A DNA stretch of 61,561 nt, counting the filler, from Basidioascus undulatus (lineage: Eukaryota): assembly GCA_000826855.1 (NCBI GenBank). It is 14 parts of 14 records of this genome, joined end to end, with 100 filler letters (N's around TTAATTAATTAA, not from the genome) between each part and the next. Parts side by side here need not be neighbours in the genome. Positions count along the whole stretch, not along the records: positions 58,740 to 61,561 come from JTLS01002635.1; 13 more parts are not named here. One strand, written 5' to 3'. The notes under the pieces are model-generated. The model did not search any database and was not told where the DNA came from. It worked only from the letters and a program-made list of their open reading frames with translations. A program made the position numbers and the translations under genes. Below, piece after piece: positions 120 to 61,561 of this stretch. Position 1 is the first letter of the stretch. The number at the start of each line of letters is the position of its first letter.

Positions 120-1005
120 GCGCACCCGTCCGGAAATCAACACAATTACTCTTCTTGGCATATATTTCTGGATGAAAATATACACAGCCAGACTAACGTT
201 GCCGTGGATAGCCACCAGAGCTGCACGTCGACCCGGCCCATCCATGCACGTTTGTTCAGGTTCGCGTACGTGAGGAGATGAAGACGCCGCTCAAGCGGGC
301 GAAAATGAGTGGCAGGCGGAGGTGGACAAAGGAAACACCGACTACAAGCGATCGTACGAGGTGCGCCGGCTTGTTGACCTCTCCTCCGTTCCTCCATTCC
401 GCTCCATAACTACTTGATATTGACAATTTCTTTGATGAATGACCGTCTTCACAGTCACTTCGGCTCGAGGAAACCGGCTTCTCCGCCTACTTCCTCCAGC
501 CGCTCCTTGTCGCCGGTCCACGCATGGCGCTAACCGTTTGGGACCCTATCGATGATAACAAAAGAGACAAATACCGCGCAAGCCCAAACAGCTTCGGCAT
601 CGAGCGGCTTAGGGACCACGCGCCCTTCCCCAACCCGTTCCCGGGCAGTGGTCGGAAGTGTTTGAAAATCCAAGCAAAATGTGAGTGAGTGACGGGCGCA
701 GCGTTCGTATGTAATCGCACAACATCGGCGACGCCGCTGTGAACCCGTACCTGCTCGTGCTCAATGCCGCGTCGAAGCTGCGTACGGTGCCCGTATCTGC
801 AGACGAGACGATTATATGCCTCCTGAACGACCATCGGGAGCTCGAGGATCTTATCTACTGGTGGCCAAAGGGCCTCGAGCCGCTGAGACAGCCTGAGCGC
901 TTTCACCGTGCGCACTCTTCCCTTCTCACCAGCCCCAGTCCCACCGGACTGGGGGAGGGAAGGCGCAGTAACTTATGCATCTACGTGTTCGGCAGCGCCT
1001 TCTGA
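120..1005 (+). pseudogene. possible fungal HNH-endonuclease-like gene or relic (fragmentary)
   Basis: Scattered + strand peptides (FLDENIHSQTNVAV, RPIHARLFRFA, AYFLQPLLVAGPRMALTVWDP, VNPYLLVLNAASKLR) recall basidiomycete HNH_2-type hypothetical proteins with an NPxxxxxNAxxK motif. I could not build a clean exon chain. Confidence 0.3.
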
Positions 1006-17408: not shown

Positions 17409-17482
17409 CTCTTCAGGTGAGACTTGAACTCACAACCTCCCGATTAACAGTCGGACGCGCTAACCAATTGCGCCACCGAAGA
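17409..17482 (-). tRNA. tRNA-Asn(GTT), no intron
   Basis: Minus strand TCTTCGGTGGCGCAATTGGTTAGCGCGTCCGACTGTTAATCGGGAGGTTGTGAGTTCAAGTCTCACCTGAAGAG folds into a full cloverleaf, followed by a T-run. Confidence 0.96.
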
Positions 17483-18224
17483 CGATGGCANNNNNNNNNN
17501 NNNNNNNNNNNNNNNNNNNNNNNNNNNNNNNNNNTTAATTAATTAANNNNNNNNNNNNNNNNNNNNNNNNNNNNNNNNNNNNNNNNNNNNAAGGAAGGCA
17601 AGGAGGTGGACATGAGGTGGCAAGGTTTGACAGTTGACGAGGATTGAATAGTTGTTAAGACGTTCATGACACACGAGCTGAATATGAGCTCCTAGAGGTA
17701 CACACATTCACATGCCGGCAGAGATAAGAAGGAAGCAGACCACAGCGATGCTGCACTCAGTCATCTGAGATACATTTTCAATCAACAATTGCATACCACA
17801 AGCACTCCCAGAGACTGCACTGGGTGTATGGGGCCCAGCACCATTCAATATTTACAAAAATGAAGCTCATTGGTTTGCGGCAAGCTGCAAGTTCGCAACC
17901 TTTGCCTTTTGAGCACAGCACCTGTAGCAACCAATATTGATTCATTTGGTGCCTTAATACACTCTTCCAGTCTCTTTTTTGCAGCCAAATTATGTTACCT
18001 TACAGCTTGGCCTGCAATTATCTCTCCACCTGCTGGCAGTCAGCCATTGCAGTTTGTTGCAGCAACCTCATGCTCGCAAAAAAAAAAACTACCACAACTG
18101 GGCATACTCCTCTGAGTCATCTGAACTATCAGACCCACACATAGCCCCAAGTAAGGAACCCACAAATGATACCCAAAAGCAGTTCATGCCCACCTCCCTG
18201 CTGGGTGCATCACTCCATTTCCAT

Positions 18225-20351: not shown

Positions 20352-20416
20352 AGCCCCACGCGGGGGTCGAACCCGCAGCCTTGAGATTAAGAGTCTCACG
20401 CTCTACCGATTGAGCT
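20352..20416 (-). tRNA. tRNA-Lys(CTT), 5' acceptor strand cut off by contig end
   Basis: Minus strand AGCTCAATCGGTAGAGCGTGAGA-CT-CTT-AA-TCTCAAGGCTGCGGGTTCGACCCCCGCGTGGGGCT. Confidence 0.93.
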
Positions 20417-56338: not shown

Positions 56339-58739
56339 ATCTCTTTGGAATCGGACGCACATACTTTCTCGTTAATTGTAGTGATTTTCTTTCGAACTTT
56401 GCACACTGTTTTGGCAGTACTTTCGCTTGTATCATCTTTCTTTTGGGCCGTTCCGCTGCGTCGGAACGTGGTACACTGAGTTTTTTACATTTGTGGCTCT
56501 CTCGGGATGTTTTGGCCTTGCAAGTCTGGACTTGGTTCTTCTATTGCACGATTTGTGTTTCTTTGGAAGTCCGAGTCCGGGCGGTTTGCGCCATTGTTGG
56601 CCAGGTCACTGTCCAACGCCCGACGCATTCGGCAGGGATCAAGTCCGCCAGGGCGTCCGAGCGGCGTTCAAGTTGCCGGCTGGGGAGGACGCGTTAGATG
56701 GTCGCTGGGCTCGCTGGGCTCGTGAGCGAGCGGAGGAAGTTGACGGTCCCTGCCTTCTGGAACATAGTCGTGAGTGGCCCGCCCAGAGGGGTGATGCAGA
56801 AAGGAATGCGAGTTCGAGAACTGACCGTCTTCGTGAGGCGGGGATGCGCTTGCAAGGTGCACGAGAAGAACGGACAAGGTAAGTGTGTGGAACCGTATAG
56901 TCAAGATCGGGACAGGGAGAAAATGTGGTTCAGAGACTGCAGAAGAGAGAATGGGATTACCGCACACCGATTTCATAGAGGCGGCAGAGGAGGAAACACG
57001 GAATGGCAACGATGGCAGCGCGGCGTGCAAGCGCCGCTGCCGCTGCAGTTGCCAGCTCGCTCGGGCAGGCATATGGCATCCCCGAACGACGCATCGCAAC
57101 GTTACCCTACTCACCATGCCATTTGCAAGTTACCCTCAGCCTCTAAAGGCACGCGTGTTATGGCACAATGTTGAACGCTCGAAAGTGCATTTGGGATGAG
57201 GGCAAGCGACCACGGTCGTAGTGTCACACCTGCAGTACTCGTATGCGTTGGCCCGGCACAGGAGCAAGTATATTGACGTACAAAGCACTTCGGATGACCA
57301 TAATGGTATGAGTACCCAGGCAAAGTACAGTTTCACCCGAAAAGGAAATGAGCGAGTCACTTGCCTCTTGCACGTCCAAGCTTCCAACCATGCAGGCTTG
57401 AGGGTCAACACTGTCGACAGCCTTGCCATAGTCCCAGTTCGTGAACGCAGGACCAGTATTTCGTCCGAAATAGAGGGTACAGATATGAGGGAGAGGAGGG
57501 GCCGAGCGGGAGGTTAAAAAAATTAAAACTTGAAGTGGTTGATGCAGGCAGCCTCAGAAGGAAGAGCCAAGGCAGAGAGCTGTGCCAGCCGCAAACGGAC
57601 ATGCGCATTCCTCGCTTTTGGCTTCGTGAGGCAGAGGAGGATGGGAAAAGTTCGAAATGAAACGATGTTGTATTTTATGGTTATAATAGGATAGGAGATG
57701 ACGGTACGTGCGATTATGGTGGAAGGAGGCTGTGGAGGAACCGGGGGCGCCGCTGAGAGCTTCCTCTGGAGGAGGGAGCGCAAGGATCTCGAGTGGGCAA
57801 ATGTCATTAAATCCTAGGAGGCTTCTCAATTTGAGTCTATAAAAGACGGATGGTAAGGAGAGTGGCAATGTTGAGCAAATGAAAAAGGGGGAGCGGGGTG
57901 TCGGGGATCCGACTGCAGCGCGTCCTCTCGTCACGAGGACGAACGAGCTCCAACGCCACAGTCGGAGCTCGCTAAGCAGGCTCAACACGCACATTTATTA
58001 CACTCCCATCCAAATCTTTTTTTGTCAACATAGAGCACCACAACAAGACAAAGAACTCACAACTGTTTATTTGGCCCTCATCCCCAATCCTTGCTACTGT
58101 AATGTTGTAAGACACACTAGCATCCCCAGCATTATAGAGCGTGTGTGACGTCAGTTTCCGTTTCGCGTGGGCGGTCTCGAAGGCGTCGGCTTCGCCCTTG
58201 TTTTGCCGTCGCCGTCGCCGCCGCCGCCACCATCCATCGCATCGCATCGCATGGCCATCGCCATCGCCTGACCGCCCGCCCACAGCCTCGTCGGCCCCTC
58301 TAGCCTCGTTCTCTCTCGCACTTGCATATCACGCACAGCTAGATTGGACACTCGTCTTCTCCTCTGAGGATTCGCGCGCGCGCAGCTAGAAGCTAGACCA
58401 AGAGCGCGCGCGGCTTGAGAAGGAGAAGATAATAGTGGGGTCAGGATGAGCGGTGAGTCAGGGGTGCGGTGGTGTGGAATGCGATGGTGCGGGATGTGAT
58501 GTGATAGGGAGGGTTTGAAGAGGAGGGCGGGCGGGGGAGTGAGCGAAGCGGGAGGAGGGCGAAGCGATGCTCACGCGAGTTGAGAAGACGCTGCTCCTGC
58601 TCGCCCTGCCTGCCTGCCTTGTCCCTTCCGACTTAACGTNNNNNNNNNNNNNNNNNNNNNNNNNNNNNNNNNNNNNNNNNNNNTTAATTAATTAANNNNN
58701 NNNNNNNNNNNNNNNNNNNNNNNNNNNNNNNNNNNNNNN

Positions 58740-58809
58740 TAGTCAGATACTCTACCATTGAGCCAGCCGGCCTTGACCGACGCAGGGATCGAACCTGCAA
58801 CCCCCTGAT
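58740..58809 (-). tRNA. apparent circularly permuted tRNA gene (3' half 58809-58774, 1-nt linker, 5' half 58772-58740); anticodon incomplete, most likely Arg(ACG)
   Basis: Minus strand reads A-TCAGG-GGGTT-GCAGG-TTCGATC-CCTGC-GTCGGTC-A, then A, then GGCCGGC-TG-GCTC-AATGGTA-GAGT-A-TCTGA-CT-A (contig end). The two halves complement each other in the acceptor and anticodon stems. Confidence 0.75.
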
Positions 58810-59612
58810 CTCGACTACCAGCAAGACCAAGCTTACGGTGCGTGATAGTTCTGTTGAAAATTACATATCACTAAAACAGAATAAAAACAAGGTGAAATCA
58901 ATCTGGCTAGTAATGCCGGGCGTTTACCTGATTCACTTTAGTTTGGTCTCTCTTGCCGCAGTTCTTTCTCTCTGACCTTTGTAAATGTTCTTTTTCCTCT
59001 CCTCCACTTCCGATTGAAGTAGTTGATCGACTTTTGCCTTACCTCTTCCGATGCCGCAGCGTATTGCCATGAAGTGCTGGTCAAGGGCAAGAATAGTTTA
59101 TCCCTACGTTCTATGTGTTTCCAATGCATCTTCATGTTCGGGTGCTAAATATGTCATGTTTGTCACGTTACTTGCCATGAGCGGGCGGACAGGGCAAACA
59201 TTGTGCCTTGCAGGTACCGCAGACCTCGCAATCGAGCACAGTTTGCACGAGGGTGTATTGAGAACGGGCGAGAACGTATAGGACGAGATGGGGAAGGGCA
59301 ATGGTGATACAAAGAGCGAAATAGGAGGAAGCTCGTAGCAACCGACAACGAGCCGTGGCGGAAGCGAACAAAGAGGCGAAGAACGGCAGTCAGTATGGCG
59401 AGGGGCGGCACAATTGTATCGGAAGACGGGTTCACAGAGGAAGCCCCATTACGACGAGGGTGGCATGCATGGGTTATCAGCTGAAAGGCAGTCAGGCAGG
59501 TTTCTATGCTAATAAGCTGTATGTGTGGACCCGGCCAGCGTCAAATATATCAAAAGAGGCTCCACCAGGTAATGCGCCTGGGAAGACGGAGGCGCCAAAA
59601 GATGGGCAGGTA

Positions 59613-59648
59613 CGCAGTCTCGCAGTTTCGCAGTCTCGCAGTCTCGCA
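59613..59648. repeat. short tandem repeat (CGCAGTCT) x4.5
   Basis: CGCAGTCT CGCAGTTT CGCAGTCT CGCAGTCT CGCA, about 60 nt downstream of tRNA-Pro. Confidence 0.85.
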
Positions 59649-59707
59649 CTTCGCGTCAAACGACTCTGTCATATCTCCTCGCCTTTCACCGTGCCAAAAT
59701 GCAAAAA

Positions 59708-59805
59708 GGGCCTGACCGGGAATTGAACCCGGGACCTCTCCCATACATGCAGATGCATGGGCTTTGCAACCCGAAGGGAAAATCATACGACTAGACCATC
59801 AGGCC
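59708..59805 (-). tRNA. tRNA-Pro(CGG) with 26-nt intron (59744-59769)
   Basis: GGCCTGA/TCAGGCC acceptor stem, TTCCC-TT-CGG-G[intron]T-GGGAG anticodon arm, CCGGG-TTCAATT-CCCGG T arm, T5 terminator. The D loop has C where G18 is expected. Confidence 0.9.
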
Positions 59806-60656
59806 GACGCAGACCAACTTCAGCTCTTTTTTTCTCGGCGCTGGGCACTTTTAGAGTTAGAAGGGATCATTGAAAGATGGAGACACGGAAGTAAGGAGGA
59901 TATGGGCACAAATGCGAGCCCTGGAAGGCAGGGTGTGCTTGGGAAGTCGTGCCTGTGGGAAGTCGTGTCTGTGGTTCTCGGACGGGGACAGGCCTTGATC
60001 TACGCACATAGGCCTTGGCAGTGAAAGCCGCACTGTCAGATACTATTAAGCACCATACATGAATAAACTTTCATTGAAGAACATGATAGCTCGCCTAAAG
60101 TTGAGAGAACTTGCTGTACAGGTCAGCAAGCGCATTGGGAAAACTTGCCATCCGATGGACAGCAGCACGCATCGCACAAAGGAACAAATGTGTCTGTGTT
60201 GCTCTTCTCTACGAAACATACATTGGGATTTTGAAGATAGGCCCTAGATCAGTCTTATTCTTGCAGTTTTCGGCCAGACTGCAACCCAAATGTCGAGAGA
60301 AGGTGCCGGCCTGCTTGACCAGAAATGAAGAGTACCACCTTCCAAGCTGCACAACATCAGGATGCTACATTCATTCACAGAGTTCATGACTTGTTTGTTG
60401 TCGTTGAAGGTACGGAAAGAAGGTGTACGGTCGCAGTCTTCAGCGGTCCTCACCGCCGAAAGGTCGAGAAGGCACTCGGGGCTCGGGATCTTTCCGTTGA
60501 GCATGCGCGGCCTCGTCAAGATCAGCAACGCGCCCTTTCGACCTCATTCTCATCCTTCAACCGCTCCTCCTCATCATCCATCCCATTATCCACTCACAGA
60601 GAACTCTCTGAATACCTTCGAGATCCTGCCTTTACTCTCCTGCCTGCTCCATTCGA

Positions 60657-61561
60657 ATGGCCCCCGTCCAACTAGCAGTGTACGACCTCTCGCGCGGGCT
60701 GGCCGCCCAGCTGTCGGTGCCTCTCACGGGCAAATACATAGAGGGGATCTGGCATACCGCGGTATTGGTGTGTTCAAAACCTCATCTTTTCCTCTATCTC
60801 ACGTTTCGACTCACCGATCTCGCACGCCCAGGCATTCGGCAAAGAGGTCCGCTGGCTCTTCGTGTGGTGGCTACGCTGGCAGGCAGCTGATCTTTGTACG
60901 GCGCACCAGGTCTTCTTCGGGCAGGGGATCTTCATCACGAAACCGGGGACGACGCACCACGGCCAGCCGATGAGGGTGCATGATATGGGGGACACGGGCA
61001 TCGGTGAGGGTTTGCTCGTCCTCAGCATGTCACACCAGAGGCGGCGGGAGCTGATGGTTTGGCGGGGCGCAAGATGAGGAGACCTTCTTGGAGTACATCG
61101 AAGAGCTGAGGACTGTGTACACTGCGGAAAAGGTGAGAGGGGTTGTTAAATATGGTGGATGAAAGGAGGGCGGGCTCGATGCTGATGCTGGGTGGTTCTT
61201 GAACAGTATCACCTGCTTGAGTAGGTTCTGCCACGTTGGACTATGATCCTTGGAGTAATCAGACTGACGTGCGGTGGCTATTGCAGCCACAACTGCAACC
61301 ACTTCAGCGCAGACGTGATCGGCTTCCTAACGGGCGCTACCATCCCATCCTACATCTCCGGTCCGTCCATCTTCCATTTGATCTCCCTTCCGAAGCGCAC
61401 ATTCACATATGGTCGCCCACACGCACAGACCTCCCCAGCGACTTCCTTTCCACCCCCTTCGGGCAGATGATCCGCCCCCAAATCGACCAGATGTTCCGCT
61501 CGGCCGGTCCCTCCCCCATCCCCACCTCCGCCGCGTGCCACTCTAACGCGCAGCTCCACAA
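60657..61561 (+). CDS. PPPDE/DeSI family desumoylating or deubiquitinating peptidase, 3'-partial
   Basis: [81 protein letters not shown], with catalytic His (WHT) and Cys (NCN). Confidence 0.93.

Follow-up and report, generated by a model that had tools for sequence, protein, structure and literature searches.

Permuted tRNA-Arg(ACG) genes in a basidiomycete: a dispersed family whose leader may be a relic that restores A-then-B promoter order

Permuted tRNA genes carry the halves of a tRNA in inverted order, and with them the internal A and B boxes; how Pol III transcribes such genes is a question left open in the consulted part of PMC3978253. Here, we describe a permuted tRNA-Arg(ACG) gene from the basidiomycete Basidioascus undulatus and ask what its leader is for. 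The window, i.e., the whole stretch of DNA analysed (61,561 nucleotides), consists of 14 contigs, mostly ~2.8 kb, separated by 13 artificial N44-TTAATTAATTAA-N44 linkers. The gene sits at the extreme end of contig 58740–61561. Read along the minus strand, it consists of a leader, the 3′ half (A38 at 58809 to A73 at 58774), a single nucleotide (58773), and the 5′ half (G1 at 58772 to A34 at 58740), where the contig ends (Table 1). The contig stops within the anticodon loop after A34, and positions 35–37, the trailer, and the terminator all lie outside the window. In total, three contig ends lie in or beside tRNA genes, the others being at 17409–17490 (Asn) and 20360–20416 (5′-truncated, anticodon CTT), a pattern that assembly breaks at multi-copy tRNAs would produce. 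The reading we favour, with a probability of roughly 55%, is that the gene is one of many dispersed copies of a tRNA-Arg(ACG) permuted at 37/38 (type II), with a leader that would be a trimmed relic restoring A-then-B order and supplying a 3′ splice site.

Table 1. Features of the permuted gene, its leader, and the adjoining linker (window positions)
Feature	Positions	Strand	Basis or remark
AT-rich upstream patch; candidate TFIIIB/TBP landing zone	58851..58890	-	31/40 A/T; no canonical TATA; T5 run at 58884-58888
TCAC motif	58842..58845	-	Read by eye; 10 nt before TAAGC here, 12 nt before the T8 equivalent in 4/6 paralog-leader rows
TAAGC, first half of the family A-box-like element	58831..58835	-	Sequence and paralog rows; 7 nt further upstream here than in paralogs
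A-box-like 12-mer TGGTCTTGCTGG	58818..58829	-	Pattern scan and fold; lacks A14; 3′ part family-conserved; 5′ part can fold back on 58813-58806
Conserved leader end TGGTAGTCGAG	58810..58820	-	Sequence, paralog rows, and folds; D-loop mimic (G18 G19 T20 A21 G22) plus 5 nt; GTAG can pair with C32-C35
3′ half of tRNA-Arg(ACG), A38-A73	58774..58809	-	33/36 identical to closest normal homologs; includes B box (G52/G53 at 58795/58794)
1-nt intervening sequence	58773	-	Differs between the two commonest copy types (placed from unitig ends)
5′ half of tRNA-Arg(ACG), G1-A34	58740..58772	-	Own A box at 58765-58755; contig end cuts the gene; 35-37 absent
Artificial scaffold linker N44-TTAATTAATTAA-N44	58640..58739	.	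DNA past the linker is another contig

The junction corresponds to position 37/38: alignment to homologs with introns at 37/38 places the start of the 3′ piece at A38, with the 37 side beyond the window. When the halves were rejoined by script and positions 35–37 were borrowed from the homolog L008, ARAGORN returned a 72-nt tRNA-Arg(acg) cloverleaf. The native permuted gene was reported neither by ARAGORN nor by the Rfam tRNA model, so “missing” fungal tRNAs may hide in the same way. A search with a 5′-half pattern matched 43 metagenome loci, and all 43 have CG at positions 35–36, giving the anticodon ACG; because 35–37 are missing from the window and were taken from homologs, the anticodon is assigned rather than read. 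A B box lies downstream of the 5′ half at 40 of the 43 loci and upstream at none (40 have at least 100 nt of upstream flank). The closest tRNA bodies (L008, L022, L028, L034, and L039) are identical to the window copy at 29 of 33 bases in the 5′ half and 32–33 of 36 in the 3′ half, and have 8–11 nt introns at 37/38. The 5′-half pattern had no match in prokaryote genomes, and patterns for the permuted junction had none in metagenome contigs, viral contigs, or prokaryote genomes.

Two Arg(ACG) loci have unusual structures of their own. In L005 (328–379, minus strand), a tRNA-Arg(ACG) in normal order has its T-loop split by a 52-nt insert of spliceosomal type, with a GTACGT donor, a TACTAAC branch site, and a CAG end; a literature search found nothing obviously on such an insert. 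In L024, no B box lies near an Arg(ACG) 5′ half (401–426, minus strand), and the long sequence downstream of it contains TACTAAC and GTAAGT motifs; this may be a second intron-interrupted or split tRNA gene.

Several other candidates were rejected for the permuted region. The match to YrlA Y RNA (RF02553) scores 30.4 bits against an Rfam gathering threshold of 69, and all snoRNA and miRNA matches likewise fall under their thresholds. A scan for sigma-70 promoters and intrinsic terminators was set aside as inapplicable to Pol III. A long-intron reading, with the 5′ half further upstream, fails on two counts: the A-box scan lists no upstream 5′ half near a B box, and a T5 run lies in the upstream patch.

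The permuted order is not confined to the window. We aligned contigs of two DNA runs (X1 and X2), each with >90% of the region's words, to the region at 80% likeness; the two runs reveal the same loci, and one may be the window's own source. At several loci, the 3′ half precedes the 5′ half on the same strand, and long unique contigs of 4,220 and 18,542 nt carry this order. Among the matches listed, nine of nine partly aligned records in each run diverge from the region at 58804–58820; none diverges at 58809, 58774, or 58772, as would be expected for a normal-order gene, and there are no joints. The nine in X1 have differing upstream flanks and, with the window's own locus, give at least ~10 loci among the matches listed. 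The 3,014-, 4,220-, and 18,542-nt records continue past A34, with the second piece absent among those matches. No normal-order copy of this tRNA body was found among the contigs matched at 80% likeness, a search whose filter drops some records and which a divergent normal gene would escape. X3 covers only the tRNA part of the region; its record 17 extends 3 letters beyond A34.

Sequencing depth points to a higher copy number. The unique flank of the window copy has a depth of 19.6 in X1 and 49.5 in X2, and single-copy contigs have ~17 and ~44, respectively. Short unitigs across the junction of the 3′ and 5′ halves reach 175 + 298 in X1 and 473 + 650 in X2. The ratios to single-copy contigs, 28 and 26, correspond to roughly 25 copies, a rough figure since depth is not copy number. 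The multi-copy, permuted layout is very likely real.

Variants among the copies were placed by unitig ends, on the logic that a branch starts 30 bases from the variant, as checked with record 1 (change at 58782, end at 58812). By this logic, a single base, the spacer at 58773, separates the two abundant copy types. Some family members are degenerate: records 1 and 9 are changed at G1, G2, C65, and the spacer, and records 3 and 10 lack positions 38–42 and the family leader. X3 record 18 (93 nt; window 58752–58814) joins the D-loop TGGTAG back to leader position −5, with a loop period of 63; depth arithmetic on its junction words gives ~2, and it is a rare chimera or a single tandem locus.

What does the leader contain? 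The first-pass annotation described a 12-mer, TGGTCTTGCTGG, that fits TRGYnnAnnnGG except at A14 and lies 22 nt before the B box, with AT-rich DNA further upstream. These observations hold as described, the 22 nt being measured from the last G of TGGTCTTGCTGG to G52, and the flank having no clean TATA. In the window copy alone, the match is weak: A-box matches with at most one mismatch occur at 510 of 120,240 window sites, i.e., with a probability of ~8% for a 20-position search.

For the paralogs, we read 30 upstream letters by eye on the minus strand in 10 rows (five places in each of two runs). The 58804 rows (a single contig in each run) were excluded because they do not show the family leader; the 58816 and 58818 rows are single contigs, identical in both runs, and were counted once each; the 58819 and 58820 rows are consensuses of three contigs each (agreement 0.61–0.93) and provide four of the resulting six distinct rows. 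The register was an 11-nt A box ending at G19 (58818), with the 58816 row offset by one base. T8, A10, A14, R15, Y16, and G19 are kept in all six rows, and G18 in five. The typical family element is TAAGCWAGYGG, followed by TAG; G10 is absent from all six rows and Y11 from four, and the equivalents of acceptor positions 1–7 vary from row to row. Leader conservation among paralogous loci, which the first-pass annotation had set as a test, is therefore found, in the form of an A box aligned with the gene's D-loop. The conserved form is not the predicted TGG..TGG, since the paralogs have TAA or TTA for the first TGG and keep A14. By contrast, the window copy is off the family register, with G at both the T8 and the A14 places. 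Compared with these rows, the window's 12-mer reads as a local variant of a better-conserved family element, the window copy being the deviant one, and it may be a weak copy. Leader conservation may also reflect recent amplification or gene conversion, because the loci share descent, four of the six rows are mixtures, and X1 and X2 reveal the same loci.

The leader-end motif is absent from all 43 metagenome Arg(ACG) loci. In the four paralog rows where TCAC starts 12 nt before T8, the intervening bases vary. Of 36 unique normal Arg(ACG) loci, 9 have TCA at this distance, which is the commonest offset there, as does none of the three normal tRNA genes of the window; TCA(C) may therefore be a relic of the 5′ flank of an Arg gene rather than a general initiator. 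The leader can be aligned with a whole upstream copy reduced to its 5′ flank, a decayed acceptor strand, the D-loop, and five further bases. The TCA offset fits the proposal that the leader is a relic of an upstream gene copy, with the reservation that the window 12-mer is not itself the conserved form, and we consider such an origin probable.

A tandem-duplication model has been put forward for the origin of permuted tRNA genes (PMC3978253). Applied here, an intron-containing gene would have given rise to two head-to-tail copies separated by a single base. Of these, the downstream one would then have lost its 3′ half, and the upstream one most of the sequence between the D-loop and the intron end. 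Speculatively, the latter deletion could have occurred between the D-loop GTAG and an intron GTAG; of 18 distinct introns, 3 have a GTAG close to their end, and these 3 belong to the closest tRNA bodies; the presence of GTAG at both places would offer microhomology. With an A-box-like element retained in the remnant leader ahead of the B box, TFIIIC would meet the boxes in normal order.

In yeast, Pol III starts 10–12 nt before position 1. By this ruler, the start is predicted near 58847–58855, and by the TCAC motif near 58843; overall, transcription would begin around 58840–58857. The distance between the leader's A-like box and the B box is 22 bp in the window copy and 23 in one paralog, against 32 for an intronless body, i.e., about one helical turn less. 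Yeast tRNA genes have A–B distances of 31–93 nt (PMC5356446), 32 being the commonest (PMC11724288), and the leader's gap falls short of this range. Measured against the type 2 A-box set (T8, R9, G10, Y11, A14, G18, and G19), the window copy falls short at A14 and the paralog rows at G10, the latter rows retaining T8, A14, and G19. The earlier suggestion of a restored A-then-B order is supported as to the conserved A-like box upstream of the B box, and qualified by a spacing below the yeast range. There is precedent for promoter boxes in leaders that are removed, as in RPR1 and SNR52 (PMC5356446). We lean toward the leader's A-like box being a working promoter at the level of the family, and hold this with less confidence for the window copy.

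The strongest alternative accepts functional permuted tRNAs and denies the leader box a promoter role: the box would be a recently inherited relic, or would serve splice-site pairing in the RNA, with transcription depending on the B box and upstream AT-rich DNA. Such an arrangement has been proposed for algae, where permuted tRNA genes are thought to use upstream TATA-like elements and the internal promoter is probably dispensable (PMC3978253), and AT-rich flanks are present here. The short A–B gap and the missing G10 are in its favour, as is the window copy, which lost A14 while its tRNA body stayed intact. In addition, an upstream pseudo-A box in a yeast tRNA-His gene could not substitute for the real A box (PMC11724288). 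That case differs from ours in that a real A box was the reference there, whereas here none lies upstream of the B box. Two observations made by eye count against this alternative: T8, A14, and R15 fall upstream of positions −9 to −1, which can pair with the anticodon arm, and they are kept while the adjoining acceptor-equivalent bases vary. We judge it a serious but distinctly less probable explanation than a leader with a promoter role.

The leader was also proposed to give the splicing endonuclease a 3′ splice site, and a review describes the proximal anticodon–intron pair as critical (PMC10485636). As first noted, a G is present three bases before the junction (58812), and the two intron-containing tRNA genes of the window likewise have G at −3 (GTC before A in Ser, GTA before T in Pro); a single matching base at this position is a 1-in-4 event. 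The expected conservation of this G is seen in records 6 and 7, each with one difference, which unitig-end logic places at −2, leaving −3 as G. Among homologs, G at −3 occurs in 13 of 22 unique intron-bearing loci (9 of 18 distinct introns) and not in the closest normal-order ones. The second pairing noted earlier, of GTAGTC (58818–58813) with GACTAC in the anticodon arm, is complementary as described, with the caveat that only GACTA lies within the window and C35 is taken from homologs. The two pairings are mutually exclusive, because C32 pairs with either G−3 or G−6. In constrained folds, the anticodon–intron register gives −19.9 kcal/mol, an unpaired leader −21.3, and pairing to G−6 −23.5 to −23.6. 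A hairpin of the window copy's TGGTCTTG onto the splice junction gives −26.4 kcal/mol and would block the anticodon stem. For the BHB/hBH motif, the 3′ splice side was modelled, the trailer being outside the window, and the anticodon–intron register is possible but not favoured. The splice-site proposal thus stands as far as the presence and retention of G−3, and not as to the canonical register being the preferred fold in silico.

If the gene is expressed as we propose, a precursor of leader, 3′ half, one nucleotide, 5′ half, and trailer would fold as a tRNA. TSEN would cleave at −1/38 and after 37, and ligase would join 37 to 38; RNase P would open the tiny acceptor loop, the extra base would be trimmed, CCA would be added, and the leader would be discarded. 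The unconstrained minimum fold is not a cloverleaf. The 1-nt spacer at 58773 is short and contains neither promoter nor terminator, and G1–C72 must fray because it cannot close a 2-nt acceptor loop. We think it probable that these permuted genes yield tRNA.

A different product is nevertheless conceivable. The family could be a dispersed repeat of tRNA origin, similar to a SINE or TRIM, or it could mimic a tRNA while its acceptor loop stays closed; in either case, the restored A–B promoter would drive a transcript that gives no charged tRNA. The depth-based estimate of roughly 25 copies, the degenerate members (at least two), and the weak YrlA match are all compatible with this, and tRNA-derived TRIMs exist in basidiomycetes (PMC10886601). 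Moreover, no acceptor loop in Table 1 of PMC3978253 is as short as 2 nt, counting the CCA of the archaeal case with a 1-nt spacer. However, the two abundant copy types differ at the spacer base only, the 3′ piece begins precisely at A38, and the matched contigs hold no normal-order copy of this body. All 13 Arg codons in one exon are CGT or CGC, which require this tRNA. The upstream flanks diverge, and the paralog rows share no LTR-like terminus over their 30 letters; neither an LTR pair nor a PBS or PPT was seen at the permuted loci, whose downstream ends are out of view. We consider a repeat or mimic improbable. A merely secondary permutation (through a duplicated orphan 3′ half preceding a complete gene, tRNA genes arrayed head to tail, or misassembly at this contig end) is more improbable still: the window contig stops inside the anticodon loop, with the downstream side outside the window, and one X3 record loops back at the shared TGGTAG, but the same junction occurs at high depth in two DNA runs, three records pass A34 without a second piece, and there is no loose end at 58809 or 58774 and no joint among the matches listed.

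The family differs in several respects from known permuted genes. In the consulted part of PMC3978253, 34 permuted tRNA genes are reported from algae and one archaeon, with spacers of 5–74 nt in eukaryotes and 1 nt in Thermofilum pendens, and most eukaryotes are described as lacking such genes although their machinery should permit them. Type II genes are known from Cyanidioschyzon merolae, prasinophytes, and the Bigelowiella nucleomorph (PMC3978253), and also from Auxenochlorella (PMC12633428). By comparison, the genes described here have a fungal host, are multi-copy (the table of PMC3978253 gives single genes or one pair), have a 1-nt spacer (against a eukaryotic minimum of 5 in that source), and carry a conserved A-box-like leader element, whereas upstream TATA-like signals are invoked for the algal and nucleomorph genes (PMC3978253). 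The permuted tRNA-Tyr(GUA) of T. pendens shares the 1-nt intervening sequence but is archaeal, with the junction at 59/60, an encoded CCA that makes the acceptor loop 3 nt longer, and an external TATA promoter (PMC3218864). The RPR1 and SNR52 genes of Saccharomyces cerevisiae resemble the permuted gene in placing Pol III promoter elements in a 5′ leader that processing removes; they differ in having both boxes there and in not encoding a tRNA (PMC5356446), whereas the permuted gene has its A-like box alone in the leader, the B box being exonic. Helenus (TRIMp3) elements of fungi, with tRNA-derived LTRs, are likewise dispersed, multi-copy, found in basidiomycetes, and equipped with tRNA-derived A and B boxes (PMC10886601); “permut” occurs 0 times in the main text of that paper, and here the halves rebuild a complete, homolog-like tRNA.

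Only algae and archaea are named as hosts of permuted tRNAs in the consulted parts of PMC3218864, PMC4033280, PMC4090602, PMC13578239 (a 2026 review), PMC12633428, and a 2026 O. tauri preprint. No fungal permuted tRNA or leader A box was found in the literature searched (mostly abstracts, with few subscription papers); the upstream alignments of Maruyama 2010, Soma 2007, and Figure S1 of PMC12633428 could already show such a relic. Tentatively, the fungus might make all of its tRNA-Arg(ICG) from ~25 permuted genes, with a disposable leader A box one helical turn closer to the B box and maturation via a circle with a 2-nt acceptor loop. Permuted tRNA genes would then extend to opisthokonts and be able to run on the standard TFIIIC and TSEN machinery, and a visible fossil of their tandem-duplication origin would have been preserved. 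A multi-copy fungal family with a conserved leader A box would be a concrete answer to the question of how inverted boxes are transcribed, testable in yeast extracts or cells. The family would also probe how close together TFIIIC can accept the two boxes (22 bp) and how short a spacer (1 nt) RNase P and tRNase Z can handle.

Other genes in the window were noted in passing. On the same contig, ~0.9 kb upstream of the permuted gene, a tRNA-Pro(CGG) with a 26-nt intron lies on the minus strand (59708–59805); its D-loop has CG where GG is usual. The contig also carries exons of a PPPDE/Peptidase_C97 gene on the plus strand (60612–61467). On another contig of the window, a methionine synthase exon has its top named match in Wallemia ichthyophaga (73%), with Agaricomycetes at 61–67%, among the best 8,000 candidates scored.
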